A DNA stretch of 44,935 nucleotides, taken from the UHGV virus genome UHGV-0175244, one strand, 5' to 3'. Below, one piece after another: positions 1,342 to 23,721 of the stretch; position 1 is the stretch's first letter, and every line of letters starts with the position of its first letter. Made by a program: the position numbers and the translations under genes. Under the pieces are notes generated by a model, which saw nothing but the letters and a program-made list of their open reading frames with translations, did not search any database and was not told where the DNA came from. Origin of the DNA: a virus.

Positions 1342-1804
1342 GTGAAATCAGGCTCCTGTTCCTTCAATATAACGAAGGAGTATTCATATATTACCCAAGC
1401 CTTAATATTTTTGAGGAAGGCTCCTGACAGCAACTGTATCCTACCACAGCCGCCATGCTTAGCGCTCGCTGATTATCGGTCTGAAAACATGATGCGGGTA
1501 ATGAAGTGCCCCTGCTGTTACGTGTCGTTGGCTGACAATAATGCATTCCAACTCACGCGCATCAAACGGTGCTAAAGGCCACCGCCATCAGACAGCTTAT
1601 AGGGTTTGTCCTTAGTTTTAGATATATCGACCTGGCGGGCTGCGAGCTTCACCTGAGGTATCTCCTTTCATTGAACAGGAATCTCCCTCCACATGAATGT
1701 GGATTTCAATGAATCATACAAGACATTGAGGTAATGGAATATTTGAAAATGCCGCGTATATACTGGGCTGAGTAGACTTCAGGGGACGTTAAGAGAAGTG
1801 AGTA

Positions 1805-1849
1805 TGGCACGCCCTACAGGATTCGAACCTGTGACCTACGGCTTAGAAG
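1805..1849. repeat. int-distal attachment-site core (45-bp copy of tRNA-Arg 3' end)
   Basis: tggcacgccctacaggattcgaacctgtgacctacggcttagaag is identical to 43603-43647; flanks diverge immediately outside. Confidence 0.85.
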
Positions 1850-2014: not shown

Positions 2015-2311
2015 TTAATCGTGTGTGGCTACGCCGAGAACTTCCACATCTTCCAGCGCCTCACCTTCAATGCTCTCGCCTTCGGCTGTGATAAAAGAGC
2101 TGCCCATCAATTTTGCAAACTGCAGTTCGCCAGCCAGGCGGATAAGCAGGACGCTTCCTTGCGTCACTTTTAACGACAGGTCAACTGAGTATTTTTCAGC
2201 GATTCCGACAGTAACGGTAACAGAAGCGGCATTTTCATCGAGAGAAAGAGACTTTACCTGCCACAGAGCTGACAAGTTGAGGATATGTGCATAGAGGGAC
2301 TTTTCGTCCAT
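2015..2311 (-). CDS. hypothetical protein (between att and gtrA)
   Basis: 98-aa ORF; GAGGT about 8 nt upstream of ATG; no recognisable family. Confidence 0.35.
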   Translation of the reverse strand: MDEKSLYAHILNLSALWQVKSLSLDENAASVTVTVGIAEKYSVDLSLKVTQGSVLLIRLAGELQFAKLMGSSFITAEGESIEGEALEDVEVLGVATHD

Positions 2312-2546
2312 GGTGGTGACCTCTGGCGATTTAATACGCCATTATCATGCCTTCAGCCACCACAACAAGGGAAGACCCATGGATAAACAGTAATATCGAT
2401 CGGTAGATTTGATCAAGGCGAAACGGCTCACAGTTTTGTAAAGCCACTGTTGGCGCTGAAATTTTAATCTGGCGGCTTCGTTTATGGGTGACTAACCTCA
2501 AATTACCCACCCCGTAGCCAGCTCAGAGAGGCGCGGTTGAGTCATT

Positions 2547-2567
2547 GCCCGGTCGCCGGGCTTTTTT
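2547..2567 (+). terminator. rho-independent terminator upstream of gtr operon
   Basis: gcccgg-tcg-ccgggc hairpin followed by T6. Confidence 0.45.
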
Positions 2568-2590
2568 CATTAACCCCGCTTTACTAATTC

Positions 2591-2619
2591 TTGCCAAAAA
2601 CCAGACGTAGTGGCAAGAT
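2591..2619 (+). promoter_or_regulatory. candidate sigma70 promoter for gtrABC
   Basis: TTGCCA, 17-nt spacer, CAAGAT; weak -10; about 30 nt upstream of gtrA start. Confidence 0.25.
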
Positions 2620-2648
2620 CCGCACCTTGCGATTATAGGAATATACTG

Positions 2649-3008
2649 ATGTTAAAGCTGTTCGCTCGCTACGCTTCAGTTGGGGCGGTTAACACTCTCA
2701 TTCACTGGATAATTTTTGCTGCTCTTTACTCACAGGGCTTCAACCAGTCGATGTCAAACTTTGCGGCCTTCTGTTGCGCGGTAACCTTTTCATTTTTCGC
2801 AAATGCCAAGTGGACATTTGACGCTGAGACCACCACGTTTCGCTACATAATTTATCTTTTCTTTATGGGCGGCATGGCATCTGCAGTTGGAATGTATGCG
2901 GACAGGTCGCACTCCAGCCCTGTTATTACGCTTATTGCTTTTTCTGCCATCAGCATGGTGTGTGGATTCATTTATTCAAAGTACATTGTTTTCAAGGATA
3001 GAGGATGA
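2649..3008 (+). CDS. gtrA: GtrA-family bactoprenol-linked glucose translocase (flippase)
   Basis: ~120-aa small membrane protein; internal ATG (M14 of listed ORF) with AGGA RBS; directly precedes and overlaps gtrB. Confidence 0.8.
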
Positions 3009-3934
3009 AAATATCCCTTGTCGTTCCGGTATTTAATGAAGAAGACGCCATAACCATTTTCTATAGGGAAATCCGTCATTTTCAGCCCTTCCAGGGGGAA
3101 GAGGTTGAAATTGTCTTTGTAGATGACGGTAGCACTGACTTCACTGCTGTTCTGATGAAAGAGATGGCGCAGGAAGATAGTCTGGTCAAAAACATATTCT
3201 TTACTCGCAACTTTGGTAAAGAAGCTGCGTTATTTGCTGGGCTAGCAGAGGCCAGCGGCGAGGTGGTAATACCTATAGACGTGGACCTTCAGGACCCGCT
3301 GGAAGTCATTCCGCGCATGATTGAGAAATGGCGAGAAGGGGCTGATGTTGTTCTGGCAAAGCGCATGGATAGGTCTTGCGATAGCTACCTCAAGAAAAAA
3401 AGCGCTGAATGGTTCTACCATCTTCACAACTTAATCAGTAATCCTCAAATTGAAGAGAACGTAGGCGATTTTCGTCTTATGTCCCGAGAAGTTGTCGAAC
3501 ACATCAAGCTGCTGCCTGAGAGAAACCTTTTTATGAAGGGGATACTATCCTGGGTAGGTGGTAAGACAGATGTGGTTGAATACGTAAGAGCCGAAAGAGC
3601 CGCAGGAAAAAGTAAGTTTAATGGCTGGAAGCTTTGGAATCTGGCGCTTGAAGGGATAACGAGTTTTTCTACCTTCCCGCTGAGAATGTGGACGTATATC
3701 GGTCTCTTCGTAGCCGGTTGCTCATTTTTTTATGGGGCATACATGATTGTGGATACCCTTTGTTTTGGCAATCCGGTGAAGGGATATACATCGATAATGG
3801 TATCGATGCTATTCCTTGGCGGCGTTCAGCTGATAGGTATTGGAGTGCTCGGCGAATACATTGGCCGCATTTACATCGAAACAAAGAACAGACCAAGATA
3901 CATTACGAAAAGGGATAATGTTGAACATGAGTGA
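3005..3934 (+). CDS. gtrB: GtrB bactoprenol glucosyltransferase (GT2 family)
   Basis: 309 aa; N-terminal [10 protein letters not shown] and VDDGSTD glycosyltransferase-2 motifs; C-terminal membrane segments. Confidence 0.9.
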
Positions 3935-5411
3935 TTCAGCGTTAAAAAACGATAAATTCCAGCGAATTTTTAGAATTGTTTTGCCATTGTCCCTTTTATA
4001 CATATCTTGGATTGTTTTTACTGGCAGACTTTACATTGATGACTTAGGCCGTTCTCTTTACGGTTATACATCGTGGGGACAGGACGGCAGGCCAGCCTCT
4101 GATCTATTAATGTCAGCCTTGAGTTTTGGCACGCCAATCCTAGACATTACACCCCTTCCCCAGATTTTATCTGTCATTGCCTTAAGTGCAGTTCTGTCAC
4201 TTTGGGGGGTAAAGTATCTGCCAAGAAAAGGCACAACCTCTTCTGCTGTATGTGTTTTATATTTTATTCTATCACCATTTTTCCTTGAGAATATCTCATA
4301 TCGTTATGACTCACTACCTATGTCTTTGAGTCTTGTTGCACTATTATTGCCATATGCATTGAAGAAAAAACCTTGGTCTCCTTTTCTACATTTCATTTCT
4401 GTTATCGCTTCCCTGTCTTTTTATCAGGCATCAATATCGTTATTCATATTACTTATGATTATTGATGTAATTCATCTTTATTTTTCTAAAAAAGATGATT
4501 TAAGACATCTAGAAATAATCAAGTCAATTGCAATTAACACGCTTGCCTTTGCTGCTGGATTTGTTTTTTATAAGGTATTAATTGCTAGCTCCTTTGCGTC
4601 AGGCTCTTATTCTGATGAGCACTCAAAAATTATAAACGTTGACCACACCTTTTTTGATGTACTGTATAATAATACAGTTGTCATATTTACGTGGCTTTTA
4701 AACCCGCTTTATAAGTGCTCACCTTTTCTCTTTAAGGGGTGCGCATTGATCTTGCTAGTTAGCATCATAAAGATATCAATGACATCCAAAGATGTGAAAT
4801 CCAGAGTTATTAACTTATTTTTACTTTCCGCCTTGATTACTGCGGGCTTTTTCTCTTGCTTTGCACACATTGCACTTCTTAAAACCCCTGTGCTAGCGCC
4901 TAGAGTATTAATATCTTTCACAGGATTCTTCCTGCTTTTTGCATACCTAGTAGTCCAAGCCTTTGAAAGTAAAAAAATTCAGCTGATACTTTTGGCCCCT
5001 GTTGTTTTTTTTAGTTTCATACTTTCATTTTCTTATGCAAACGCATCAAGCTCCCAAAAGGAGCTAGATAAATTAATTTCCACCTCAATTTATAACGACA
5101 TTTCTCATCAAGATTTGAGTTTTAAAAATGTTTTCATTCATGGCGTTATGCCAACATCGAAGCAGAGGGCATTGATAGTCGAGAGACTTCCGATAATGAA
5201 TTCTCTGATACCTATTTATTTAAATAACAATTGGTCTTGGGGGGCTATGATTCTTAAGCATTACCTTCTCGACTACAATGTGGACGCAACAATTACAGAT
5301 CCAAAAAAGGAAATCTGCTCCTTAACACCATTCTCCAGGTCTAAGGATTATTCACTATACAGCAAAGGTGATACCTTAATAGTATCATTTGATAAGACTG
5401 GATGCCGCTGA
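3918..5411 (+). CDS. GtrC-type serotype-specific O-antigen glucosyltransferase (polytopic membrane protein)
   Basis: about 497 aa, highly hydrophobic, markedly AT-rich relative to the rest of the prophage; start overlaps gtrB end (ATG at 3918 or 3927); third gene of a gtr operon. Confidence 0.6.
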
Positions 5412-5420
5412 TTAAAGTCT

Positions 5421-5447
5421 AGGCCGCCATGCGGCCTACTTTATTTT
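5421..5447. terminator. hairpin terminator between convergent gtrC and tfa
   Basis: aggccgc-cat-gcggcct stem-loop followed by T-rich tract. Confidence 0.4.
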
Positions 5448-5836
5448 GGCCAGTCAATATCAGGTGCCTTGGAAGTATCAACCCGGCTTAAAAGCACGCG
5501 ATATTTTTTCAGTGTAGTTAACTGTGTTCTTTCTTCATCTGTCGCCATGTCTAGGTCGACCGCATCCTGAAGTATGGAGATCGTCTGGCTTGCTTCAGCT
5601 ATAAGATTAGCCTTTTGCTGCTCTGCCTGAGAAATCAAATCCTCTTTTGGTACCTCCGGCTCAGGAGGAACGTTAAACACACCTTCTTTGTATGTTCCGC
5701 CAATCCCGCAAAGATTATCACCGCACCTTACTGCATGAGCGCCTTCAGGCGGCCCCCATTCTGTGACGCCATCCCATACAACAATATTAATTATCAGGCC
5801 ATCTGAGTTAACAACTGCATAGCTTTCCGGAACCAT
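5441..5836 (-). CDS. tfa: tail fibre assembly protein (chaperone)
   Basis: 131 aa; C-terminal ...DIDWPK typical of Tfa-type chaperones; immediately downstream of tail fibre gene. Confidence 0.75.
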   Translation of the reverse strand: MVPESYAVVNSDGLIINIVVWDGVTEWGPPEGAHAVRCGDNLCGIGGTYKEGVFNVPPEPEVPKEDLISQAEQQKANLIAEASQTISILQDAVDLDMATDEERTQLTTLKKYRVLLSRVDTSKAPDIDWPK

Positions 5837-6765
5837 TACGCGTACTCCATAATCAGTATTGCGCCATCATTTCCCGCAAGCCCAGCCTGAGCAGCGGAGC
5901 TTGCGTTAACAAAAATACCAGACCCCCCACGCCCTCTCTCACCACCAGGGAAAGGAGATGCCGGAGAAAGCCATCCGGTTCCCGATCCTGTCGCTGCCTG
6001 AAGAAAGTTCCACGCCTGTGAACCAGTACTGGAGAGAATAATCTCAGTACTGTGGTATTTGTTGATAACTGGCTTGTCATATGATGGCTGCGCAACTGCG
6101 GTAGTAGCGCCGACTGATCCCGGGCCTGACCCATACCCTCCAGTAACATCAGCGATATCTGCAATTGCGGTTGTACCACCTGCAAACCCGGCGCCATTTA
6201 CCTGTGACTTGCCACCAGTACCAACGCTTACAGCCTTACCTGCACCAATATCAGATGCATACGCCTTTATAAATGCGTAACCTCCACTGTTACCGGCGGC
6301 AGATCCACCAGTCTGATTCGACGAAGTTGCAGGAACTCCGCCTGACGCACCTCCACCGGCTATCATATGAGCAAGAATGAACTTCATGCCTGGAGTAGGA
6401 TTATAAATACCGGAGTTGTAGAATACCTGTATGTTTAGCAGCCTACCAACGTATCCGCTCGCATCTCCCAAACCAAGGTTTTCGAGAGCCGTTTTCACCG
6501 TGCCATCCGATTTGATATCACCAAACGGATTCTTGCGGCTTAACAGCAGCGCACGAAGCGCGGTAAGCAGCTGGTCGTGCCGCCCCTTCTCCAGGCTGGC
6601 ACCGGATGCCTCAACAACGCTACAAAGTTCTTCCTGCAACATGTCAAAGTAGTCATCATCCAGATCGGTGGCAGGTGTGCCGGTCTGGGGGTTACCACGG
6701 GTAAAACCGTTCTTACCCGCGCCGAACTTATCCTTCTGCGCGGTTTTCGTGTCTATACGATGCAT
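5836..6765 (-). CDS. tail fibre protein
   Basis: 309 aa; conserved fibre N-terminus ([27 protein letters not shown]), Gly/Ser-rich distal part. Confidence 0.8.
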
Positions 6766-6768
6766 GGA

Positions 6769-7353
6769 TTACTCCGGATATTTAAAAATTACGTAGGTAT
6801 GCGACGGGCAGAGTTTGTTAAGCACGCACTCGACAACGGTGTCGCCCCAGATACGCAGTGCGGAATCACAGGGATCGCCACATGTCATCCAGGTGGTGTT
6901 GGTGGCTGCTGGCATGTTGATCTGCCAGTAATACCGCCATTCAGGCGCGTTCACAGCGTCAGTACAGGCCGATGAGCAGGTGAACGTGCTTTTGTCGTAT
7001 CGCGTGATGGTGGCATCTGGTCTGCCCAGGGCAGCAAGCTGTGCAAGATAAAAATCCTCGTTGATGCCGCCCGCCAGGTTAACCTTCGCATCCAGTCGTT
7101 GCTGACGCTGGCGAAGGGTCTGTGTTCCTGCGGGAATACATTCATCCGGCAGGCCGCACAGACGCTCCCAGCGATTTATCAGTTCGGTGGTGGTGCGCGG
7201 ATCCAGCTCCCGCATCAGGGCATCCGCACGCTGATGAACGCGGGTTAATGACGGTGCCGCACCGGCAATCGCCGGATCGCTGGCTGACCACGCCGGACCG
7301 GGCGGCAGCAGTGCCGACAACAGACGGATGTAATCATCGTTTGTCACGTCCAT
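6769..7353 (-). CDS. putative tail protein (YmfQ/DUF2313-like, Mu gp48-like)
   Basis: 194 aa, between baseplate J-like gene and tail fibre; N-terminus recalls YmfQ family. Confidence 0.6.
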
Positions 7354-8402
7354 GAAATCGTCCCCAGAACCGCCAGTTCATTTTTTGCAATGGAGATATT
7401 TTCCGCCGGTGCAAGCAACTGATGGCTGTATTCCCCGTTCGCACCGGAAATCGCTTCACTGATACGCGACACCTTCAGTTCTCCCTGGGGATAACCATCA
7501 CGCAGCAGGAACGAACGCAACTCCGCGGTGATGGCAGCCCGTATTTCCGGTGTATCCGGCGTCACACGGATATGAAAATCCACCGTATGCGCCACCGGCC
7601 TGAACACATACAAATCAGAGCCTGCCACCGGGGCCAGTGGCCCGATATGTTGTCTTGCCGCCGTTTCCGTTGATTCTTCCGGAATGGGATTAATCAGGTC
7701 ACTGCTGGCAATCATCACACCGACAGTCCCCGTTCCCATCCAGTGACGGTATGCCCATGCGCGGGTAATGCCGGGCACTTCTTTAGCCCAGACAACATAG
7801 TCCCCGTCAGCCCCGCCCTGAGGAGTCCAGTAATACCGCTCAATGACGCGGGCGCGCCACGTTTCCAGATCTTCAGTATCAAATCCACCTGTCAGAGTGT
7901 CTGCCACGCCGGAAGACGGCAGACCATTAACCGGCGTAACCAGGATTAATGACGTACCGTCGTCAGCGTTACCGACCGCTCCTGCACTTGAGCAGGCGAT
8001 CGGCACGCGCAGGACACCACCGGCGCTGGTTGCATCGGCAGTTGCCGTGTACTGAACCAGGTCATCGCGCTGAATAACACTCCCGGCGGTCACCTTCAGG
8101 CCATCGCTGACGCCTTCCCAGCGCATATACCCGCTGGCAGTCGTGGCCCCCTTGCGCGGACACCGTTTCATCGCAGCATGTCGCGCCAGCCAGGACTCAT
8201 CGCACAGGTCAGGCAGCATGTTCATTGCCAGATAATCGATGTACCCGTAAACCGTATGCAGCGCCGCCGCATACACCTTTGCCCGCACGTCTTCATCCAT
8301 GCGCCGGAGCGTGTCGCTGACGTCCAGCCTGGCGAATAAATCGTTACGGAGCATACTGATATTTTCTGCCAGCGTCGGGCGCTGAAATTCACTGTCCGCC
8401 AT
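7344..8402 (-). CDS. baseplate J-like protein (Mu gp47-like)
   Basis: 352 aa; position and sequence character of baseplate wedge J family. Confidence 0.75.
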
Positions 8403-8817
8403 GCGTTATCGCACTCCACAGATCATCAAAAGAAATCATTACCGGTCCGTCACGACGCCAGAGAGTGATACTGTTACCCAGTTCATTAATCCCGGTGCGG
8501 CGGATATCCAGATCAATACGGGACACCACGCCGTCATCAATCATCCATTGCAGGCATTCGCGGATATACCCCCTTACCGTCTGCACCAGCTGATTGGTCA
8601 GTTTGCTGCGCTGAAGCAGCCACAGTCGGGAGCCGTAACGGTCATTCTGTACCGCAGGCCAGGTATCCCCCCACCATCCCATCGGGACGTCGGCGTTGTC
8701 ATCAGGCTCCGCCCGCCGCCAGGTAAACAGGGAAATCACCACGGCGCGGGTCAGCGGATCCAGCGGTGCGCTGGCGCAGGTGCGTTTACCGTTCACCGTC
8801 AGCCACAGTTCCATCAT
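8389..8817 (-). CDS. Mu gp46-like baseplate protein
   Basis: 142 aa; position between gp45-like and gp47-like genes. Confidence 0.6.
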   Translation of the reverse strand: MMELWLTVNGKRTCASAPLDPLTRAVVISLFTWRRAEPDDNADVPMGWWGDTWPAVQNDRYGSRLWLLQRSKLTNQLVQTVRGYIRECLQWMIDDGVVSRIDLDIRRTGINELGNSITLWRRDGPVMISFDDLWSAITHGGQ

Positions 8818-9362
8818 GCCTCCATCGCTTTATCAGGTTTGTCGGTGTTACTGCCCTGACCGTTCTCTCTGTGACGATGCCCGTTATAGGCAAGCCGCAT
8901 CGCTGACATGGTGGTGCCGCTGGAGTCGCACAGGTCTTTCACCTGTCCTGTCACTTCCAGGTCCATTTCAAAACGTGCTTTAGGTGAATTGCGAAACGTG
9001 ATCGTTTTGCCTGCACCGTCCACCACGATCCCCTCCCGGGTCAGCGTCACGGACTGCCCCTGATCGTCATAGACAGCCACCTCACCCGTTTGCAGCCCTT
9101 TCAGGCGGTAGCGACGGTCCGACACCGTAACAACCACCGCATGAGAACGGTCGCCATCCGGAAACAACACCACCGCTTCCGCACCGCTGTTTGCCCTTGC
9201 GGTAAAACCGTAGGGTTCAAGATGTTCAACCCCGGCTTTGGGTTCACCGGCAATCAGGGACACATCCACGGTCTGACATTTCGTGGCGGCACTGATGCTT
9301 TTCACCACGGCCCGCCCAATCAGGCCGAGGAGTTGTCGCTGCATGGCTTCAATCGTCCTCAT
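8814..9362 (-). CDS. baseplate assembly protein V / spike (Mu gp45-like)
   Basis: 182 aa; synteny in Mu-like tail module. Confidence 0.7.
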   Translation of the reverse strand: MRTIEAMQRQLLGLIGRAVVKSISAATKCQTVDVSLIAGEPKAGVEHLEPYGFTARANSGAEAVVLFPDGDRSHAVVVTVSDRRYRLKGLQTGEVAVYDDQGQSVTLTREGIVVDGAGKTITFRNSPKARFEMDLEVTGQVKDLCDSSGTTMSAMRLAYNGHRHRENGQGSNTDKPDKAMEA

Positions 9363-10441
9363 CAGAACGGGTCCTCCTGTACTCTGGCTTTTTTCTTTTT
9401 CCGCGCGCCGGGGGCTTCGGGTTCAGGCAGATAAGCATCAGGTGGGCCGACACGGATTTCCGTCAGGGTGCCGTTCTGGTCCTGAGTAAACGTGACTTCC
9501 GAAACAAGCAGTTCGGTATTGTCGAAACCACAGACCGGATCAAAGACAATCACCCGCTGGTTGGGCTGCCACAGCGTACCGTTACCCTGTCGCCAGCCCT
9601 GCACCACATAGGTGGTTTCATCCGTCCGCGCCGCCCGTTGCCGGGCTTCAAAGTCAGCACGCGCAATACAGCCTGCCCCCGTAGCCTGCCCTGTCTGCCT
9701 GATATACATCGGACGGTAACGGGCAATAAATGCGTCCTCTGCGCGGGCCCGCAGCGCGGTGGTGGTGGCCTCACCGAAATCATCGTCGTTTCCGGCACGC
9801 TGCCCCGCCACCTGGTAAACAGAAAATCGCTCCCGGATACTCTTCTCCGTATCGCAGGAAAGGATGTTTTCCCCGAGTACCAGCGCAGTATGTGCCCGCG
9901 TTGAGCCAATACCGCCAATCACCAGCCTGCCGTGCGGGTCGTCGTAAGCCAGTGCCTGCTGCTGACCGAGTATTTTGTTGATTACCTCAATCACCGTTTC
10001 ACCGTGATCAGGCTGAACATCAGGAATAACACCCGACGGCGCACCGCTGTTCACCACCTCAATGCCGAAAGGCGCAGCAAGCGCCTGCGCAATCTGTACC
10101 AGCGATCGTCCGTTAAACTGTGTCGGTTCGGCTGCACAGTCAATCAGGTCAGCGGTCAGACTGCGTCCGGCAATACCGGTGCTGACCGAACGGGCATCGT
10201 AACGAACGGGCGTCGCCTCCACCCAGCCGGTGATCACCAGCTCATCACCAATCAGCACCTCCACTTTTGAACCGTTTTTAATGCGCGGCTGAAGCGTGGT
10301 AATACCCTCATCTCCCGGCCACTGGCGGGTGATCTCCACACTGAAATCCCGCGCCAGCCGTTCAATACCGGCACCGATGCGCACCGATGTCCAGCCATTC
10401 CACTCCCGGCCATTTACCCGTAGCGTGACATTGTCGTTCAT
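9362..10441 (-). CDS. Mu P (gp44)-like tail/baseplate hub protein
   Basis: 359 aa; N-terminus MNDNVTLRVNGREW... typical of this family; synteny. Confidence 0.7.
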   Translation of the reverse strand: MNDNVTLRVNGREWNGWTSVRIGAGIERLARDFSVEITRQWPGDEGITTLQPRIKNGSKVEVLIGDELVITGWVEATPVRYDARSVSTGIAGRSLTADLIDCAAEPTQFNGRSLVQIAQALAAPFGIEVVNSGAPSGVIPDVQPDHGETVIEVINKILGQQQALAYDDPHGRLVIGGIGSTRAHTALVLGENILSCDTEKSIRERFSVYQVAGQRAGNDDDFGEATTTALRARAEDAFIARYRPMYIRQTGQATGAGCIARADFEARQRAARTDETTYVVQGWRQGNGTLWQPNQRVIVFDPVCGFDNTELLVSEVTFTQDQNGTLTEIRVGPPDAYLPEPEAPGARKKKKARVQEDPF

Positions 10442-11808
10442 TGCACTGGCACCTTCAGAGGGATCACCGGCACAAAGCCGGGATGCGTAATGGCATTACG
10501 CCGGATAATGTCCGCGTCACGCGCCGCGTTATCAAACCAGGTCGCCGCCAGCACCAGCGCGGGTAAAACCTCATCCGGTGTGCGCTGAATGATCCGTGCA
10601 GACTGTTCAAGGCGCGTGTTGATATCCGCATTCAGATCTGCTTTCACCCGGCGCAGCGCCAGAAACAGCGCATCACTGGTTGTACGGGACAACTCCTTAT
10701 CAATTGCCGTATTCAGTGTGTCGCGAATGTCAGTCAGTTCTTCCCACGTCGGCAGGTCAACCGTGTTTTTCACCGCCGGTGCATTGTTCAGTGCCGGATG
10801 CGTGACGGAAGGCCAGCCGGTGCTCTGCGCAGGTGTTGTTGCCTGCCCCACTGCGGAATTCAGCATCACCGCGGAAGTTGTTGGCGCAGGCAATCGGGTG
10901 ACGGCATACGCCGCTTCACTGATTGCGGTCGTACGAAGGGTGCTGGCAACCACATTACGCTGCTGCGTAGCCGTGGCGGTGGTTTTACTGTCCGTTTTCC
11001 AGACGCCGCGCGGTTGCAGATCGCTGCCGAGGCTGACACCGGAAAGCGTTTTGATCATGGTGACCAGGTCGCTGGCGTTACCATAAAGGCGTTTCCCGGT
11101 ACGCCACATTTTCTGCACCTGCTCAACGAAATTTTTGCCTGACGATGGCGGCGGCAGAAGTACCGAGATATCCCCCTGCAACAGCCTGGCAGCATCCGAT
11201 ACGGCAGAATCCACCACTTTCATCGCATCAGAAACATACCCCAGCATTATGCTGGCATTACCGATAACGTCGTTCTGCACGAAATCCGCCACACCATCGA
11301 TACTGAAACCGCTGAAGCTGTCACTGATGCAGTCATCCAGTGCAGAACAGGATGACATCAGCGTCTGCGCCGTCGCCGCACCTGAAGTGGGGTAAGAGAG
11401 TTCTCCCGCTTCGACAAACTTCAGGTCAAAGCGGACAATACGCCCTTCACTCTTCGATGTGCTGACCCGAACTTCCCCGTCAACACAGACTTTCAGCTCA
11501 CCGTAAGTCGGATGGACAAGCGTGCCGGGACCGGGTTTATTCAGCGCGTCAATCAGGCGATCGCGCTGGTCAAAGCAGTCATCTCCCACCACATAAGCTG
11601 TGATGGACGGGCGGAAAGTGATTTTCCCCAGGTCTTCGGTATAGGGTTTGTCGCGGTTCGGGTATTCGTGTGTTTCCACACGACGGCCGGTTCCCGCACT
11701 TTCTTCTTCAACCTTAAACGGCACACCGCGAAATGACGCGTCCTGAAGTCTGTCTTTCCACGTCATATAAACTCCGTACATAAAAAATCCCACCGGAGTG
11801 GGACTCAT
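10438..11808 (-). CDS. DNA circularisation protein N-like (Mu gp43-like) tail protein
   Basis: 456-aa ORF; true start probably an internal ATG (11781 or 11766). Confidence 0.7.
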   Translation of the reverse strand: MSPTPVGFFMYGVYMTWKDRLQDASFRGVPFKVEEESAGTGRRVETHEYPNRDKPYTEDLGKITFRPSITAYVVGDDCFDQRDRLIDALNKPGPGTLVHPTYGELKVCVDGEVRVSTSKSEGRIVRFDLKFVEAGELSYPTSGAATAQTLMSSCSALDDCISDSFSGFSIDGVADFVQNDVIGNASIMLGYVSDAMKVVDSAVSDAARLLQGDISVLLPPPSSGKNFVEQVQKMWRTGKRLYGNASDLVTMIKTLSGVSLGSDLQPRGVWKTDSKTTATATQQRNVVASTLRTTAISEAAYAVTRLPAPTTSAVMLNSAVGQATTPAQSTGWPSVTHPALNNAPAVKNTVDLPTWEELTDIRDTLNTAIDKELSRTTSDALFLALRRVKADLNADINTRLEQSARIIQRTPDEVLPALVLAATWFDNAARDADIIRRNAITHPGFVPVIPLKVPVQ

Positions 11809-11826
11809 TAACAGATTAATTTTTCA

Positions 11827-13662
11827 TTACCTGCCAAAGCGCGTATAGCCAACATCATGGCTGACATCAAAACCGCTGGATCGCGTTTCCATAACCCGCA
11901 TCCCCGGAGGCAAATTCACAAAAGAGACCTTGATCTCACCATCAACTTTTGGCGCAGAAGCTTTGTTAATCATGAAGGGATTCGAGCCTGTGGCATCGGA
12001 GGCGTTGTTTGACTGAGCCGGATCCACCGCCGGATAAGGTGTGTATCCCCGCGCCGGTATTCCCGTCCCATAAGCATCATAAGCACCCGCGCCCCACTGC
12101 GCAGAGTTAATGGCATCGACCGTGTCACCGGAACTGTCGGTAAACCACTCAATAATTGGCTTCAGCTTGTCCCACATATCCTGAAACCACTTAACAACCG
12201 GCCCCCAGTTATTGATCACCATCCCCAGCGGCGACCAGGCAAAAACTTTCTTAAGGAGTTCCCAGCCGGCCTCAAAATAAGGACCAATGGTTTCCCAGAG
12301 TTTCTTAAAATAAGGTCCGACAACATCCCAGTTAGTGATAATTAATCCCGCAGCCAGGGCTATCGCCGTCGCAATCATGCCAATCGGCGTCATCGACATG
12401 ATCCTGCTGACAATACTGATGGCACCGCCAACGCCCATCAATCCCAGTTTCAGAATCGCAAGACCGGCAGCAAGCCCGACGACGCCGCGAATAACCCGGG
12501 GATTTTCATCCGCAAACTTCGTGAATTTTTCCCCCAACTCCCCCAGCCATTGCGTGATATTTTTAGCGTCACCAGAAAATGCGCCGCCAATAGCTGCAAG
12601 ACCGTTAGTTGCGGTCCCCGTCATTGCCTCCCACAGGTTGGACAGCGTACCAAGCTGAGCCTGAACACGTTTATTCAGGCTGGCCTGTTTATTCATCTTC
12701 TGCTGGGTCTGATCGTAGCCATCCTTTCCTTTATCGATTAGTGCATTGACCACCTGAAGGGTTTCGGCATCATCACCAAATATTGCCTTAAGTACACCAG
12801 TTCGTTTAACGTCGGTCAGTTTTCGCAGCTTTGCCAGTTGCCTGAACATGTTATCAAGACCGCCAAAACTCCCTTTGCCGTCAGTAAAATCGAGCTGTAC
12901 CCCGAGTTTCTGGCGGGCCATGATTTTATTGACGTCCCTGATTTTCTTAACGCTTAATCCGGACTGGATAACTTTTCGCAGGGCGTTACCTGCCGACTCC
13001 CCGTTCATCCCCATCTGATCCATCATGACGCTGATGGGGGCAAGGCTCTGTGCAGCCTGAAGACCGTCCTTGTTCACCATCTTCAGAACAGAGCTGGTTT
13101 TAGTGAAGAAGGACAACATGTTGGTATCGTCAACGCCCAGATAAAACGCCTTCTGGATAGTGTCGAACAGCCCCATCATGTCTTCTGACGCCGTTCCGGT
13201 AGCATCCTGCATCTTTGCAGCAAACTCAGCAGCCGCTTCCGGTGTTTTTTTCAGTTGTACCGCAAGATAAGCTGTCGCTTTACCCACACCGCCAAGAATG
13301 TTTTCTGCCGGGATCCCCTGACGCACCAGCATCTGCATCATGTTCTGGAAATCAGCCGTTGTACCGGGTAGCTGGTTACCCAGACCAATAGCCAGTTTAT
13401 TGATGTCCTGAAAGCTCTTTCCGACCTCACCGTTCGCATCCATCATGGCAACTTTCAGCCCGGTGGCGGCGTTTTCCTGATCGGCATAAGATTTCAGGGA
13501 AAGCGTCAGACCCGCAGCCAGTCCGCCACCAAGCGCCAGCCCACCCTGTGACGCTTCTTCCGCCTGGCGTTTAAATCCCCGGATTTTCTTTTGCATTTTC
13601 GACAGCGCGGGAGAAAGCCTGTCGACACCGGTGATCAACGCCTTAAGCTCAAATTCAGCCAT
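11827..13662 (-). CDS. tail tape measure protein
   Basis: 611 aa, Ala/Gly-rich with coiled-coil and hydrophobic segments; downstream of frameshifted chaperone. Confidence 0.85.
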   Translation of the reverse strand: MAEFELKALITGVDRLSPALSKMQKKIRGFKRQAEEASQGGLALGGGLAAGLTLSLKSYADQENAATGLKVAMMDANGEVGKSFQDINKLAIGLGNQLPGTTADFQNMMQMLVRQGIPAENILGGVGKATAYLAVQLKKTPEAAAEFAAKMQDATGTASEDMMGLFDTIQKAFYLGVDDTNMLSFFTKTSSVLKMVNKDGLQAAQSLAPISVMMDQMGMNGESAGNALRKVIQSGLSVKKIRDVNKIMARQKLGVQLDFTDGKGSFGGLDNMFRQLAKLRKLTDVKRTGVLKAIFGDDAETLQVVNALIDKGKDGYDQTQQKMNKQASLNKRVQAQLGTLSNLWEAMTGTATNGLAAIGGAFSGDAKNITQWLGELGEKFTKFADENPRVIRGVVGLAAGLAILKLGLMGVGGAISIVSRIMSMTPIGMIATAIALAAGLIITNWDVVGPYFKKLWETIGPYFEAGWELLKKVFAWSPLGMVINNWGPVVKWFQDMWDKLKPIIEWFTDSSGDTVDAINSAQWGAGAYDAYGTGIPARGYTPYPAVDPAQSNNASDATGSNPFMINKASAPKVDGEIKVSFVNLPPGMRVMETRSSGFDVSHDVGYTRFGR

Positions 13663-13837
13663 GTGTGCGTTTCTCCTGCTCTATCCTGTTTGCCTGACTG
13701 ACCAGCAAGGGAATTTCACTGATCGGCATATTCAGCAATTCGAAGGGATTAATGCGCCAGTAGCTGGCGCAGTCAAAGAAGCGATCAGTGAGGTATTCAG
13801 CCGTCAGGCCTGGAGGAAAAAACCGGCCACAAGCCAC
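13655..13837 (-). CDS. tail assembly chaperone -1 frameshift extension
   Basis: -1 frame ORF overlapping the chaperone end; slippery heptamer T TTT TTC (plus-strand gaaaaaa at about 13816-13822) lets the ribosome shift into this frame. Confidence 0.55.
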   Translation of the reverse strand: MACGRFFPPGLTAEYLTDRFFDCASYWRINPFELLNMPISEIPLLVSQANRIEQEKRTHG

Positions 13838-14073
13838 GCCGCTGCATTCAGGTCTGCCGGAGACATCTGGTCGACAGAGCTTTGCGGCACTTTCGCCAGC
13901 CGCACAATGTATTTCGACACCACATGCGCCAGAAGTCTGACGGACTCATCCTGATTCATCTGGTAGGGATACCCCAGCTCGCGGACATCTTTCCCGGTGG
14001 GCTCATCAAACTCCAGTACGGAGAGTGTCTCGCCATGAGCGGTAATCGGTTTCTTTAACTCAAGCTCTTTCAT
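13804..14073 (-). CDS. tail assembly chaperone (short, in-frame product)
   Basis: 89-aa ORF between tube and tape-measure genes; ends just after slippery site. Confidence 0.65.
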   Translation of the reverse strand: MKELELKKPITAHGETLSVLEFDEPTGKDVRELGYPYQMNQDESVRLLAHVVSKYIVRLAKVPQSSVDQMSPADLNAAAWLVAGFFLQA

Positions 14074-14429
14074 TACTGGTAATCCCCTTCTTCACCGTGG
14101 AATTCAAGATCGACCGTGCCTTCTTCGGCATTATGGTTCGCTTCGCCGTGCAGCCAGGCAGACGACAGTACATAGACCTGACCGTTCGCCAGCTCGGCAG
14201 TGATGGTCATCTCATCAGACGAGGTGATTTTGTTCACCGGAAAATTCTTCGGCACCTTGAAGGTCCCTTTGACATAAGGCGCACGGTGAGTTTCCTTGCG
14301 GTCCACTGAACCGTCCAGGCCGATGATGTCATCATTGACCGTCCTGTTCATGGGCACCTCAATGCCGCCGGTCAGCGATAGCTGCTGACCGTCAATTTTG
14401 AAATAACAGGTTCCCCCGATACGGGCCAT
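14073..14429 (-). CDS. tail tube protein (Mu gpM-like)
   Basis: 118 aa, immediately downstream of sheath gene. Confidence 0.8.
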   Translation of the reverse strand: MARIGGTCYFKIDGQQLSLTGGIEVPMNRTVNDDIIGLDGSVDRKETHRAPYVKGTFKVPKNFPVNKITSSDEMTITAELANGQVYVLSSAWLHGEANHNAEEGTVDLEFHGEEGDYQ

Positions 14430-15925
14430 TATGCGGACTCCTCTGAATACTGAAGACGGAACTGGTTAACCACGGCAAAGACACGCAACTGGTTAACATA
14501 GTCAGGCGGGAACAGCGTGTTCAGGCGGTTCGGATCGCTGGCATCACGCTCCACAACCAGGTACTGCTTAAACAGTTCGTAGTTTTCCACGATCCCCGCA
14601 CGCTCAAGCTGACGGTAGGTTGCCAGCAGTTCCCCTTTGATCACCGCCGGGGTGACAATCGCCTGACCGGGACCAAAGCGGGTACCGTCACTGGCAAGCT
14701 TGTGACGCCCGTACTTACTGGTAATGACGGATTTCAGTTTGCGCAGTACATAGGCACTGGTATGCAGCGTCTCGCTGTCGAGGTAGCTGTTATCCGCAAC
14801 CCCGTAAGCGTTTTTCCTGTACGTGGTGACATCACGCTGAATGCGCAGCACCCCGCTTTCGACATATGCCGTTGCCACGCCATGAGACAGCAGGGTCTGT
14901 TGTTCGGTCATCGTGAACCGTTTCCCCTTCGGCGCAGGCAGCATACCCACCAGCTCACCGGTCTGCGTGGGACGTGCCGGATCGTTGCGAATAAACACCG
15001 CTGCGCGGGCGGTACGGCTTGCCGCCAGCTCATCGGCAGGCGTCTGGGTCTCTTTTTCGTACCCCGCCAGGGTAATGTGCTGCTGGTTAAACTGGTCACC
15101 TGCGGTCACCAGCTCTGACAGCGTGCCGATCTTTGCCGTATACACATGACCATACAGCTGACGCGCATAGCTCCAGCGACCGCTGGTATCGTTCATCTCG
15201 GTCACCAGCGTGTTAACGGAGGCCGTGTCGTTGAACGGCAGGCCGATATAATCAAACGGCTCATCCGCCATTGCAGCCACCGCGCCGGTGAGAACCGGAG
15301 CACCCGTTCCGGCGGTACCCGTCGCCACGGCAATCTGTACGCCCGCTGGCAGCACTTCGCCCCCACCGAAGCCGTAGTAATTGAGGCTGACAGGAATTTC
15401 ATTCCCGCAAAGCCCCTTATGACGCGCGGTCAGCGTGACCACACCAGCCGAAGATGAAGCTGTAAACGGCAGAGTCGGAACGGCATTGATGGCATCCTGG
15501 ATACTGCTGGCAATCGTCGTGACGTTATCGCCGTTGGTCACCGGAGCCTGCACGCGGGTACGTCCCACATAGACATTCACCGTGCCGCTTTCGGTTGCTT
15601 CCCCGGTCACCGTCAGCGTAACCGTTGCCGCCGCGCCTGTGGCTTCCGGAACGGCAATCACATACAGCTCACCAAACGGGTCGGTCTGGCGATAAGCCTC
15701 GACCATACGCGCCAGCTGACTTCCCGCACCACAAATCTGGCGTGCATAGTCTGCCGACGGCATTAGCACCAGACTGTTGGCAACAATCTCTGCACCGTTA
15801 TTGGCATGACCAATCAGCAGCGATGCCCCGCTGCTCTGTGCAGTATTCGCAGCCTGGTTATCCATTTCCGCATAAAACAGCGGAACCAGCGTATTCGACG
15901 GAATGGTGTTAAAGCTTGTCGTCAT
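14429..15925 (-). CDS. contractile tail sheath protein (Mu gpL-like)
   Basis: 498 aa; N-terminus MTTSFNTIPSNTLVPLFYAEMDN... characteristic of sheath proteins. Confidence 0.9.
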   Translation of the reverse strand: MTTSFNTIPSNTLVPLFYAEMDNQAANTAQSSGASLLIGHANNGAEIVANSLVLMPSADYARQICGAGSQLARMVEAYRQTDPFGELYVIAVPEATGAAATVTLTVTGEATESGTVNVYVGRTRVQAPVTNGDNVTTIASSIQDAINAVPTLPFTASSSAGVVTLTARHKGLCGNEIPVSLNYYGFGGGEVLPAGVQIAVATGTAGTGAPVLTGAVAAMADEPFDYIGLPFNDTASVNTLVTEMNDTSGRWSYARQLYGHVYTAKIGTLSELVTAGDQFNQQHITLAGYEKETQTPADELAASRTARAAVFIRNDPARPTQTGELVGMLPAPKGKRFTMTEQQTLLSHGVATAYVESGVLRIQRDVTTYRKNAYGVADNSYLDSETLHTSAYVLRKLKSVITSKYGRHKLASDGTRFGPGQAIVTPAVIKGELLATYRQLERAGIVENYELFKQYLVVERDASDPNRLNTLFPPDYVNQLRVFAVVNQFRLQYSEESA

Positions 15926-16079
15926 CGGTGTTCACCTTTTTATTCACGCGCCGGATATCACCCGCTGCTTCACGGCGCAGCCAGTAGTTGTTCTCGTCAA
16001 CATTTCGCCCTTCGGCGGGCAAAAGGTCGCCGCGGGCAGGGTCAGGCACTGACCGCCCTTTAACAGGTTTGACAAACAT
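15909..16079 (-). CDS. small phage protein (DUF2635 / Mu gp38-like?)
   Basis: 56-aa ORF absent from ORF track (below cutoff); GAGGA RBS 7 nt upstream; MFVKPVKGRSVPDP...; overlaps sheath start by 17 nt. Confidence 0.4.
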   Translation of the reverse strand: MFVKPVKGRSVPDPARGDLLPAEGRNVDENNYWLRREAAGDIRRVNKKVNTDDDKL

Positions 16080-16087
16080 GAGGATCC

Positions 16088-16648
16088 TCAGGAAGGAAGG
16101 GTTATTTCGGTGTGATGTTCGATATCGCCGTCAGGCCCGTTACCGGGATCGAGATAATCGACATCAATCGCCAGCGTTTGCAGTTCATCCAGACTGTTCA
16201 GATCATCCTGCTGGCGGGTATCGTCTTCAGTCAGCTCGCTGATGACCGAAAAATCGAACTGATAAATCAGCTCATGACGATTCAGATCCAGCAGCGTGCC
16301 GCCGTCATAGGTAATCGGGTTACCGCACGCTTCCGGGTTCCAGCCCAGCAGGGCCTTAAAGAGCATCTGCCGGACATCGTCCACCACATCATACGAGGCA
16401 AACTGACCGCGCTCATCACGCCCGTTACTCAGTATGACAACCACGGAGAAGCCCTCTTTCAGCTCCTGCCAGTAGTCGGTCTGGCTTTTGTTTTCTCCCG
16501 GAGAGTCATCACCCGGTACCACATACGCCGCCGGGAGTCTCAGCTTTCCGACCTCCGGCAGATTTTTGAACTGTGCCGCGCCTGCCACCCGGTTTTCAAA
16601 ATACGGGCAGCGGGCACGCAGCGCAGCAATAACAGGCGTCAGTTTCAT
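16088..16648 (-). CDS. phage structural protein (Mu gp37-like?)
   Basis: 186 aa; synteny upstream of sheath. Confidence 0.45.
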   Translation of the reverse strand: MKLTPVIAALRARCPYFENRVAGAAQFKNLPEVGKLRLPAAYVVPGDDSPGENKSQTDYWQELKEGFSVVVILSNGRDERGQFASYDVVDDVRQMLFKALLGWNPEACGNPITYDGGTLLDLNRHELIYQFDFSVISELTEDDTRQQDDLNSLDELQTLAIDVDYLDPGNGPDGDIEHHTEITLPS

Positions 16649-17151
16649 CTGTGTCGTCGCTCCGGCTTCAGTGATTTACGCAATTCCCGCGCCAGAAAAT
16701 AGCGTGTCCAGCTGCGGTTCTTTTCAAGAGTTTCCACCATGAAGTTATTACGTGGAGCCAGTCGCCAGCCGCTGCCACCGGATGCACCACGATGATGACT
16801 ACGACGACGTTTTGCTCCTCCCCGGACACCAAAAAACAGAAACGCCGGATAGAAGTCACCAGAGATCATCCGGTTCCCCTTCCCGTTGCGCTGGTTAGGG
16901 GCAATGCGTGTCATAAAACCGGCTCGCTTTTTACTGGCTCTCGGCACCATATAACCAATCGAACGAGCCAGGCGTCCGGTCTGATAACCGGGGTTTTCAC
17001 CCGGTGCCGATCGCGCACGGCGCATCACCAGCCGACGGGCATCACGCATATGACGCTGCCCAATCGTGACAAACGCCCGCCGGACACGGGCGCGGTTAAA
17101 GCGCATCTCGGCGGGCTGCTGAACATCAACGTGAAAAAAGGGAGTCGCCAT
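16645..17151 (-). CDS. virion morphogenesis / tail completion protein
   Basis: 168 aa, basic; position between head-tail joining genes and tail genes. Confidence 0.5.
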   Translation of the reverse strand: MATPFFHVDVQQPAEMRFNRARVRRAFVTIGQRHMRDARRLVMRRARSAPGENPGYQTGRLARSIGYMVPRASKKRAGFMTRIAPNQRNGKGNRMISGDFYPAFLFFGVRGGAKRRRSHHRGASGGSGWRLAPRNNFMVETLEKNRSWTRYFLARELRKSLKPERRHR

Positions 17152-17536
17152 TGCTGCCTCCGTGACTCTGCCTACATTCGCCCAGCTCCGTACACTCCAG
17201 CAGCAGAAAGCGCCGCGCCCCGTTCAGATCACGCTGACGTTTCACCCGGTACACACTGTCACCGCAGACCACCTCATAATCAGCGGTGATCCCCCGGCGG
17301 TAACGAATGGTGATGTAATGGGTGATGGCGTCCCCGGTCTGCGCGGTTTCCTGCCAGGTGGTGGCACTGGTCTGGACAACCTTCGCCCATGCCCGGAACG
17401 CAACCGGGTATTGAGGCTCCACGCCAAAGTTATCCGCGGGCATATCCACCCGCTGGCGGATCAGGACGCGTTTATTCAGTTCGCCGGGGTCCGGCAGAAT
17501 GTAGGTTGCGCTGGTCTGCGCCTGACGAATTTTCAT
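17126..17536 (-). CDS. head-tail joining (head closure) protein
   Basis: 136 aa; synteny. Confidence 0.5.
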   Translation of the reverse strand: MKIRQAQTSATYILPDPGELNKRVLIRQRVDMPADNFGVEPQYPVAFRAWAKVVQTSATTWQETAQTGDAITHYITIRYRRGITADYEVVCGDSVYRVKRQRDLNGARRFLLLECTELGECRQSHGGSNGDSLFSR

Positions 17537-17856
17537 TGCGGAAAGTACCTGTACGGGCCGACAAGCCAGCCAAAACTCTGCGGCATGTCGAGTTTCTCCA
17601 CTTCCGTAACCGACGAGCGGTTTTCGTAAAAATGGCTGATAAGCATCAGCATCCCCAGACGAATATCATCCGGCAGGTGCAGCCCGTCCGGATCGCTGTC
17701 CGGAATGGTTTCATCCGGTGCATAGAGCTTCCGGTTCAGATACGTTTCCGTCCGCTTTTGTGCCGCACATGCCAGCAGTTGCAGATGGCGGTCATCAGTA
17801 TCGAAATCCTCATCCAGCCGGAGTTGGGCTTTAATCTCTTCCATTGTCAGAAGCAT
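17533..17856 (-). CDS. head-tail connector protein (gp6-like)
   Basis: 107 aa; synteny directly after capsid-associated genes. Confidence 0.55.
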   Translation of the reverse strand: MLLTMEEIKAQLRLDEDFDTDDRHLQLLACAAQKRTETYLNRKLYAPDETIPDSDPDGLHLPDDIRLGMLMLISHFYENRSSVTEVEKLDMPQSFGWLVGPYRYFPQ

Positions 17857-17858
17857 AC

Positions 17859-18059
17859 TCAGCCCTCTTTACTGGTCGTGGCTTTTTTCTCTTTTGCCGC
17901 TTTACTGCTTTTTGCACTGATTCCGCGCTCTGCTAACCCGGCCTGAAGTGCAATCTCCTGCACCCGGGCAGGAAGCGCCCCGTCGTCATACTCACCGGCC
18001 TGAATGACCTCAACACGCATACCGTCCGGTGACCATTTCAGATCTTGTTTCAGGATCAT
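17859..18059 (-). CDS. small hypothetical phage protein
   Basis: 66 aa, Lys/Ala-rich C-terminus; between capsid and connector genes. Confidence 0.4.
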   Translation of the reverse strand: MILKQDLKWSPDGMRVEVIQAGEYDDGALPARVQEIALQAGLAERGISAKSSKAAKEKKATTSKEG

Positions 18060-18107
18060 GATTCTTCACCCATCAGAACAGGGGCGCAGTTCAGCGCCCC
18101 TGAGTGA

Positions 18108-19312: not shown

Positions 19313-19326
19313 CGTATTTCTCCTGA

Positions 19327-20013
19327 TTAGAAGTTCAGATTTTTCAGTGCATTCAGTGCAGAGCCCACATCCTCAGCGTCGCGCAGGGACAGTGCGCCAT
19401 AGCCCCCGGCCATGAATGCTTTGGCCTGGGTACGGGAGAGTCCGACATCACGCAGGACTCTTTCGATTTTTTTCTGTTCGGGGATTTCCCCGCGGGCCAG
19501 TGCGTTCTTGACGTCGCTGATCCGCGCCTCGTCGTTAGACGGGAACGTCACCAGGCTGACTTCCCAGAGGTCGATTTCTTTCAGCAGAAAGGCTTCTTTG
19601 CTCCGGTCGTATTCCCAGTCTTTCAGGACGTACCCAATAGAAAGGCCGGTTAACGAACCGGCCTTCATGTGTGCATGTGCGCGTTTTGCGAGGGGATCAT
19701 CATCAATAAGCAACCGTCCCCTGACGTAAAGCCCGACATCGTCTTCCTTCATTTCGGTGTAAACACCGATGGGTTCATCCATGCGGTGCTGCCAGAGCAG
19801 CGCAGGTAACGCTTTTCTGTCACTCCACGCCCGCAGGGAAGCAGCAAATGCCCCGGACATCACCACATCATCGTGGCTGTCCTTTACACCAAAGACGGAG
19901 CCATACCCTTCAAACTCACCGGAGTCACTGACAGATTTCAGACTCAGCGGTACATCAAGACGTTGTTTCGTCTGCATTGGCGTTATCCTTCTGCTTACCG
20001 GCCTTACTGCCAT
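19327..20013 (-). CDS. HK97-family prohead protease
   Basis: 228 aa; EFEGYGSVFGVKDSHDDVV...GAF motif block. Confidence 0.9.
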   Translation of the reverse strand: MAVRPVSRRITPMQTKQRLDVPLSLKSVSDSGEFEGYGSVFGVKDSHDDVVMSGAFAASLRAWSDRKALPALLWQHRMDEPIGVYTEMKEDDVGLYVRGRLLIDDDPLAKRAHAHMKAGSLTGLSIGYVLKDWEYDRSKEAFLLKEIDLWEVSLVTFPSNDEARISDVKNALARGEIPEQKKIERVLRDVGLSRTQAKAFMAGGYGALSLRDAEDVGSALNALKNLNF

Positions 20014-21378: not shown

Positions 21379-21389
21379 AATTACCTCAG

Positions 21390-23623: not shown

Positions 23624-23721
23624 TCCTGGTTAAATTTCATTTTTCGCGGGTATAAAAAAACGATGGGGCGGGCAGTCCGGAAGACGTCAGGCTGCAGGGA
23701 TTTGACCCGCCCTCCCCTCAT

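Follow-up and report, generated by a model that had tools for sequence, protein, structure and literature searches.

To our knowledge, every characterised phage Gtr system with a gtrA, gtrB and type-specific gene layout, whether from Salmonella, Shigella or Escherichia coli, modifies the O antigen. The gtr operon of phage P22, whose GtrC belongs to Salmonella family I (O:1 factor), adds glucose in 1-6 linkage to O-antigen galactose (PMC3688519). Identity within a Salmonella GtrC family is generally >96% (Davies et al. 2013, PMC3688519), and two families sharing <18% identity glucosylate the same galactose via different linkages (PMC3688519). Here we describe a gtrABC cassette at positions 2649-5411 of the virus genome UHGV-0175244, a stretch of 44,935 nucleotides (nt) that is referred to below, at its full length, as the window. 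It is an intact Gtr cassette, carried as cargo by a 41.8-kb SfII-like prophage of Klebsiella pneumoniae, and we regard it as probable that it glucosylates a periplasmic glycan, most likely the O antigen.

Gene content of the cassette

Three overlapping open reading frames (ORFs) in the same direction fill the interval by ORF calling, and all are intact (Table 1). The gtrA and gtrB genes overlap by 4 nt, and gtrB and gtrC by 17 nt, or by 8 nt when gtrC is counted from its second ATG. GtrA matches Pfam PF04138 (GtrA_DPMS_TM) at 2e-14, above the curated cut-off, and phrog_2224, a 'GtrA-like' O-antigen conversion family, at 3.5e-50. GtrB matches PF00535 (Glycos_transf_2) at 2e-31, and GtrC matches PF14264 (Glucos_trans_II) at 4e-27, both likewise above the curated cut-offs. 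GtrC also matches phrog_4829, 'GtrC-like O-antigen conversion translocase', over its full length at 1.8e-88. A previous reading of the window, made from the letters and their translations (hereafter the sequence-only reading), had proposed gtrA, gtrB and a gene in the GtrC position here; coordinates, gene order and Pfam and PHROG families all agree with it. That reading depended on the third gene belonging to a GtrC-like family, and the gene does so, with PF14264, phrog_4829 and P22 GtrC all matching. Taken together, these features support an intact, standard prophage gtrABC lysogenic-conversion cassette, of a kind already known.

The third gene indeed encodes a polytopic membrane protein in the GtrC position, as had been proposed, although its length is more likely 494 than 497 residues. 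We favour 494 because the second ATG, position 3927, is the start used by RefSeq and by every close homologue; the first ATG is one of two near-equivalent start choices. The residue encoded by the second ATG, M4 in the longer numbering, is an invariant column in the homologue alignment.

An AGGA ribosome-binding site precedes the gtrA ATG by 8 nt. At the other end, a terminator-like hairpin occupies the 29-nt gap between gtrC and the convergent tail-fibre assembly gene, tfa. An Rfam partial match to IS009 at 5469-5600 on the minus strand overlaps tfa, but at 38 bits it falls below the gathering score of 117 and is probably not meaningful.

Table 1. Features of the gtr cassette and its prophage, in window coordinates
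Feature	Position	Strand	Description
att core repeat, gtr end	1804-1849		displaced copy of the 3' part of tRNA-Arg(UCU); 46-nt perfect direct repeat with 43602-43647
conserved upstream region travelling with the cassette	2477-2648	+	172 nt; nearly invariant in the alignment
terminator-like hairpin	2547-2561		upstream of gtrA; terminator scan
inverted repeat CTTGCCA-N14-TGGCAAG	2590-2617		upstream of gtrA
gtrA	2649-3008	+	119 residues; small membrane protein, proposed flippase for undecaprenyl-phosphate-glucose
gtrB	3005-3934	+	309 residues; family-2 glycosyltransferase, bactoprenol (undecaprenyl-phosphate) glucosyltransferase
gtrC-type (type-specific) transferase	3918-5411	+	497 residues from the first ATG; multi-pass membrane protein, predicted GT-C fold
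terminator-like hairpin closing the gtr operon	5420-5438	+	8-bp stem with 6 G-C pairs, then T-rich tail; terminator scan
tail-fibre assembly gene (tfa)	5441-5836	-	convergent with gtrC; PF02413 at 1.5e-30
prophage integrase (int)	42424-43587	+	387-residue tyrosine recombinase; at the opposite end, adjoins gtrA once the genome is circularised
tRNA-Arg(UCU), integration target	43603-43679	-	ARAGORN; 3' part is the att core 43602-43647

Relationship to characterised Gtr proteins

GtrA shares 54-60% identity with the corresponding proteins of the Sf phages, P22 and epsilon34 and with K-12 YfdG. GtrB is 72-76% identical to its counterparts in SfI, SfII, SfIV, SfV, P22 and epsilon34, with 76% for SfII, SfI and SfV and 72.5% for P22. 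This level of identity to glucosylating enzymes of Shigella phages and P22 points to glucose as the donor sugar. GtrB also matches the solved Synechocystis sll0501 glycosyltransferase (5EKP), which we take to be a GtrB homologue, at 4e-86, and ArnC at 2.5e-47.

GtrC was compared with characterised type-specific transferases, a check that the sequence-only reading had suggested. Only P22 GtrC (31% identity over 489 residues, 8e-63) and a protein of Cronobacter phage ENT47670 (27.5% identity) were similar, and BLASTP detected no similarity to GtrI, GtrII, GtrIV, GtrV, K-12 YfdI or the epsilon34 protein. Set against the >96% identity found within a Salmonella family, the 31% match to P22 GtrC places our protein outside family I, as a homologue rather than a member.

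Predicted structure and mechanism of GtrC

An AlphaFold2 model of GtrC computed with 17 homologues (mean predicted local distance difference test score 86.8, predicted template modelling score 0.88) assigns the protein a GT-C transferase fold. Foldseek searches with this model returned STT3, PglB, ALG9 and DPY19 on top. A PDB sequence search with the GtrC profile gave chance-level matches only (E at least 0.33), and a search of BFVD, a viral structure library, gave no significant match.

GT-C transferases use lipid-linked sugar donors, and their catalytic acidic residues lie just after the first membrane helix. Alignment of the 17 homologues reveals a conserved acidic motif in GtrC: Y39, D41, D42, G44 and R45 are invariant right behind the first membrane helix, and E124, D131 and R329 are likewise invariant. 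The C-terminal 100 residues are modelled as an alpha/beta domain with two cysteines, both present in 11 of the 17 homologues and both absent in the other 6. Their paired occurrence is consistent with a disulfide, and hence with a periplasmic location of this domain.

In the mechanism that we propose, GtrB would move glucose from uridine diphosphate glucose (UDP-glucose) onto undecaprenyl phosphate at the cytoplasmic face of the membrane, and GtrA would help bring the undecaprenyl-phosphate-glucose to the periplasmic face. GtrC, with its invariant Asp-Asp pair, would then put the glucose on one defined sugar of a periplasmic glycan, the likeliest acceptor being the host O antigen prior to its ligation to lipid A-core. 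The outcome would be a side-branch glucose and an altered O-antigen antigenicity, which could lower the adsorption of phages binding the unmodified chain. The sequence-only reading had described the locus as lysogenic-conversion cargo that should change the O antigen. Its identity as cargo stands, being a gtrABC operon on a prophage, while the O-antigen change, like the acceptor, expression and any effect on serotype or phage adsorption, is something that we infer.

The prophage and its host

The 46-nt direct repeats bound a 41.8-kb element in tRNA-Arg(UCU). The integrase sits at the tRNA end, with 800 nt separating the repeat at the opposite end from the start of gtrA, which bears out the int-distal placement of the cassette in the sequence-only reading. 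In the circular order, tail fibre, tfa, gtrC, gtrB, gtrA, attP and int follow one another, as they do in SfI, SfV, P22 and epsilon34, and the operon lies between the tail-fibre genes and attP-int. The integrase is 61-63% identical to those of SfI, SfII, SfV, P22 and epsilon34, and the att core agrees with the annotated epsilon34 attP (argU-like) at 41 of 46 bases.

The packaging, head and tail genes (window 6460-23700, about 17 kb) are 97% identical at the nucleotide level to those of SfII, SfI, SfIV and SfV, and also to those of E. coli phages. To place the cassette in other genomes, we looked up the exact GtrA protein, which gave the contexts of loci L016-L025. Two of these, L016 and L022, come from other K. 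pneumoniae assemblies, in which the same prophage occupies the same site with 99.7-99.99% identity along 9 kb; Mu Gp45, Gp46 and Gp48 domains and Baseplate_J domains were called in them. The packaging, head and Mu-like tail module is one that the window shares with SfII/SfV-like phages. By this comparison, the same structural backbone occurs in another genus with a different integration module.

Just past tRNA-Arg lies folD, whose product is 100% identical to a Klebsiella protein, and a 179-residue flank ORF is an exact match to another Klebsiella protein. Among 5,426 complete E. coli genomes, nothing matched the left flank. The flanking sequences assign the host to Klebsiella pneumoniae, not E. 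coli.

Several other elements were noted in the prophage. A tRNA-Gly(tcc) gene lies at 26720-26794 on the minus strand. The 22-nt sequence GCAGTTGAGAATTATTATCACT occurs in two perfect copies in 23722-23767, with starts 24 nt apart, just past the low-coordinate start of a 116-residue minus-strand ORF (23763-24113). Between the att repeat and the cassette are two small minus-strand ORFs, 2015-2311 (98 residues) and 2331-2510 (59 residues). The former matches phrog_3469, 'UmuD-like protein', at 1.5e-21, and the latter has no PHROG match. Other loci have Peptidase_S24 and DinI genes where these two ORFs sit, and E. coli phage SaltyDalty shares 98% identity with window 2300-2567.

Exchange of the gtrC block between prophages

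The same gtrC, 99.9-100% identical at the DNA level, was found in 7 of the 5,426 complete E. coli genomes. In strains BY63 and 30EVA2 the context is argW-intS-gtrA-gtrB-gtrC-tfa, as in the K-12 CPS-53 prophage, and in ET120 the gene lies beside dacD. BLAST alignment of the window with the E. coli loci shows about 77% nucleotide identity over gtrA and the 5' part of gtrB, and then essential identity from about 3500 to about 5500, spanning the 3' part of gtrB, gtrC and the 3' end of tfa. Because the gtrC block is nearly identical in E. coli prophages located elsewhere while gtrA and 5' gtrB are only about 77% identical, these alignments show that the block was recently exchanged between phage backbones, attachment sites and genera. 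ET120 (L001 5824-6051) also contains a 114-nt partial duplication at the gtrB/gtrC junction, on account of which its RefSeq GtrC is 532 residues long; the duplication looks like a recombination scar.

A second form of replacement is seen at the same site in L017, a Klebsiella prophage that is 99.1% identical to the window up to 3894 and then carries, at L017 7304-8752, an unrelated 482-residue multi-pass membrane protein as its third gene. This alternative follows the same gtrAB also in L019, a P2-like prophage, and in L023 (7304-8752). It has no Pfam match and no BLASTP similarity to any of the GtrC types compared. With a guanine-plus-cytosine (GC) content of 0.397 and a 'GFSDDYS' motif past the first membrane helix, it is probably an unclassified type-specific transferase.

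The edges of the exchanged segments vary. A block beginning at 2477, and ending at 5654 or at 6490-6531, is 96-98% identical in L018, L020, L021, L024 and L025. Its right edge falls at 5654 in L018 and L025 and at 6490-6531 in L020, L021 and L024; in ET120 the shared block ends at 5848. The left edge is 2477 in these five loci, which lie in different genomic contexts, and a sixth locus reaches left to 1573. Since the five share this left edge, the cassette carries its own 172-nt upstream region. On the other side, the 3' part of tfa, or the entire gene, moves with the cassette in other prophages. By these alignments, exchange is anchored in the 3' end of gtrB on one side and in tfa or the fibre-tip region on the other, in keeping with the finding that gtr operon recombination in Salmonella ignores gene boundaries (PMC3688519).

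The block can extend into the tail fibre. Cassette, tfa and the C-terminal two-thirds of the tail fibre (window 2477-6531) are 97% identical in L021 (5829-9842), a P2-like prophage, and 96% identical in L020 and L024; the fibre tip of ET120 differs. Evidently, the receptor-binding fibre tip can be transferred in a single block with its chaperone and with the genes that modify the receptor.

The cassette is widespread, and it is intact across many genomes and phage backbones and recurs in many K. pneumoniae assemblies. For the exact GtrA, the protein collection lists 258 contigs and the contig index 546 blocks. For GtrC, a search of 5.8 billion proteins gave a cluster at 100% identity with 88 member sequences, the named ones being mostly from E. 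coli, with others from Cronobacter, Klebsiella and Citrobacter. The close family is small: the next relatives are 81-82% identical, one of them named from Pantoea, followed by 49%, 45% and lower. A scan of species-representative genomes with GtrC found no relative.

The sequence-only reading had also pointed to recent exchange of the specificity module, and had taken the AT-richness of the third gene as its sign. The composition itself is as described. gtrC has a GC content of 0.364 (0.347 at third codon positions) against 0.543 +/- 0.026 for 734 windows, each of 1494 nt, across the remainder of the prophage (z = -6.8), and is the lowest-GC stretch in the whole window, with gtrA and gtrB intermediate at 0.45. 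Its interpretation did not hold. In all of eight reference cassettes (SfI, SfII, SfIV, SfV, P22, epsilon34, ENT47670 and K-12 yfdGHI), the type-specific gene has a GC content of 0.28-0.41, compared with 0.40-0.51 for the accompanying gtrAB. Because all eight reference genes are AT-rich, AT-richness is a trait of type-specific gtr genes and says nothing on the recency of exchange. The conclusion of recent exchange survives on the mosaic identity described above instead of on composition.

The upstream region

The 172-nt region upstream of gtrA is unrelated to those of the E. coli loci, SfII and P22. Rfam found nothing in it, and the fold of 2470-2572 was no better than that of shuffled sequence (z = -0.79). 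The inverted repeat in this region could be an operator. Directly after it, at 2617, lies the only GATC in 2477-2648.

In P22, the phase-variation switch comprises two pairs of GATC sites, four in all with a 13-nt spacing, which overlap three OxyR half-sites within about 115 bp upstream of the transcription start (PMC2909390). We rejected P22-type Dam/OxyR phase variation for this cassette, as the required GATC/OxyR layout is absent, with a single GATC in the conserved region. A GATC pair with the 13-nt spacing of P22 does occur at 2398/2411, 238-251 nt upstream of gtrA; it lies outside the mobile cassette, past the hairpin at 2547-2561.

The acceptor of GtrC and alternative readings

K. pneumoniae O antigens are made via ABC-transporter pathways, and the E. 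coli O8/O9 polymannose O antigens are common to Klebsiella O5/O3. We examined the O loci of the E. coli carriers of gtrC. In ET120, an O8-family wzm/wzt mannan cluster lies between gnd and his, and its annotation marks rfbK and wzzB as frameshifted. The clusters of BY63 (O2/O50) and 30EVA2 (O174) are both of the wzx/wzy type. A shared polymannose acceptor was rejected on this ground, despite the O8-family locus of ET120. ET120 also has a second, separate wzx/wzy cluster between galF and gnd, which was found in 67 complete genomes; no other gtrC carrier is among the 60 of these 67 that were listed. The ET120 polysaccharide loci are at L013 (NZ_CP101001.1 1822800-1850000) and L012 41900-47800.

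Several observations weigh against glucosylation of the K. pneumoniae O antigen. Identical gtrC does not track one O antigen in E. coli, as judged from these three loci. Since it sits with three different O loci, a strictly O-unit-specific GtrC is not expected, and the motif recognised by GtrC may be a small one that several glycans share. Carriage of gtrC is not evidence for the presence of a matching acceptor. Because GtrC is only 31% identical to P22 GtrC, neither acceptor nor linkage can be transferred from P22, and we agree with the sequence-only reading that linkage specificity is not readable from sequence. No convincing plus-strand sigma-70 promoter was identified upstream of gtrA, where the site counts equalled those of shuffled controls. 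We know of no glucosylated O type in the K. pneumoniae typing scheme, and our literature search found no description of Gtr glucosylation of a K. pneumoniae O antigen.

One alternative is a genuine, intact cassette that has no effect in K. pneumoniae: it would merely travel with the phage, GtrC would find no sugar motif that it recognises, and the O antigen would stay unchanged. We consider this unlikely, though worth serious attention. E. coli strains whose O loci are of three unrelated kinds carry the identical gtrC, as do Klebsiella, Cronobacter and Citrobacter, so that its carriage follows phage spread, not O type, and no promoter has been identified upstream of gtrA. Precedent exists in Salmonella, where GtrC families II and IV extend beyond related serogroups and gave no detectable O-antigen modification (PMC3688519). 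The state of the genes speaks against inertness: none of the copies examined has a disrupted ORF, many K. pneumoniae assemblies contain the cassette, and the 99.9-100% conservation of gtrC across hosts is better explained by recent spread or purifying selection than by decay.

The absence of an O-locus association and the multi-genus spread of gtrC would also suit an acceptor other than the O antigen, such as another periplasm-exposed glycan shared by the Enterobacteriaceae (enterobacterial common antigen, for instance, or an intermediate of the capsule or core). In principle, any periplasmic acceptor could serve a GT-C enzyme. We nevertheless find this improbable, as the proposal is speculative and the nearest characterised relative, P22 GtrC, modifies the O antigen (PMC3688519).

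It is more doubtful still that the system transfers a sugar other than glucose. Here the model would be the Gtr-like gmlABC/gmlABD systems of Klebsiella, which add galactose side branches, as proposed for the O2a galactan (PMC7556023; PMC9176290), and sequence is a poor guide to the donor that a family-2 polyprenyl-phosphate transferase uses. GtrB shares, though, 72-76% identity with the glucose-transferring enzymes of Shigella phages and P22, and gmlABC adjoins the rfb cluster rather than lying on a prophage by att (PMC7556023). A tblastn search of plasmids with GtrC gave 23-32% matches only, none of them in E. coli or Klebsiella; gmlABD is reported from an E. coli plasmid, which may lie outside the collection searched. 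The same search with GtrB matched 15 Klebsiella plasmids, each at <47% identity.

Finally, the Salmonella name gtrC includes acetyltransferases (PMC4413052), but we rejected an O-antigen acetyltransferase of the Salmonella family II or prophage BTP1 'GtrC' kind as having next to no chance of being correct on domain and fold grounds, as the protein has no acyltransferase domain, matches Glucos_trans_II and, over its full length, phrog_4829, and is modelled with a GT-C fold. Glucosylation of a periplasmic glycan, most likely the O antigen, by an intact cassette is the reading that we prefer.

Possible implications for Klebsiella O antigens

K. pneumoniae O antigens are vaccine and antibody targets, and a tetravalent O-antigen bioconjugate has been in a clinical trial (PMC13017035). 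Typing tools infer the O type from the rfb locus together with the extra genes wbbY, wbmVW and gmlABD (PMC9176290). If prophage gtr cassettes are active in Klebsiella, epitopes and phage receptors would be altered yet go unreported by typing. We tentatively suggest, as a possibility against which the odds still lie, that prophage Gtr cassettes add glucose branches to K. pneumoniae O antigens and so make O subtypes that genotype-based typing misses. Were this true, the swappable third genes, the 494-residue GtrC and the 482-residue protein at the same site, would give alternative variants. In a more radical version, GtrC, being unchanged across unrelated O antigens, would target a conserved glycan other than the O antigen. 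Independently of these proposals, the locus offers a clean example of the exchange of a Gtr specificity gene across phage backbones, attachment sites and genera.

Comparison with known systems

The P22 gtrABC operon shares with our cassette the three-gene order, the overlapping ORFs, the place between a receptor-binding tail gene and attP-int, and an AT-rich third gene. GtrB is 72.5% and GtrA 57% identical between the two, and the GtrC proteins belong to the same Pfam and PHROG families, no other characterised type-specific protein in the comparison being detectably similar to ours. P22 differs in being a podovirus with a tailspike, with another backbone and another host, and it alone has the four-GATC/OxyR region.

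With SfI, SfII, SfIV and SfV, the window shares the backbone of about 17 kb at 97% nucleotide identity, GtrB at 75-76% identity, and the layout tail fibre, tfa, gtr(type), gtrB, gtrA, attP, int. In contrast, GtrI, GtrII, GtrIV and GtrV are unlike the window GtrC, and the integrase is only 63% identical. Of the 46 att-core bases, which in the window lie in tRNA-Arg(UCU), only 29 agree with the attP region of SfII. The window has about 600 extra bp and the two minus-strand ORFs between att and gtrA, whereas in SfII and SfIV an insertion sequence (IS) element follows the type-specific gene.

The E. coli prophages of BY63, 30EVA2 and ET120 have gtrC in the same place, after gtrAB and before tfa, at 99.8-100% identity. 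Their GtrA and GtrB proteins are 59% and 84% identical to those of the window, and their upstream regions are unrelated. K-12 YfdI, by comparison, is an unrelated type-specific protein.

Within Klebsiella, gmlABC is set apart from our cassette, by its published description, in that it lies beside rfb and adds galactose; for gmlABC/gmlABD together, locations beside rfb or elsewhere in the genome have been described (PMC7556023; PMC9176290). These systems are nonetheless three-component, belong to the same genus and have been called functionally homologous to gtrABC (PMC7556023), and they show that a Klebsiella O antigen can be branched by a system of this type.

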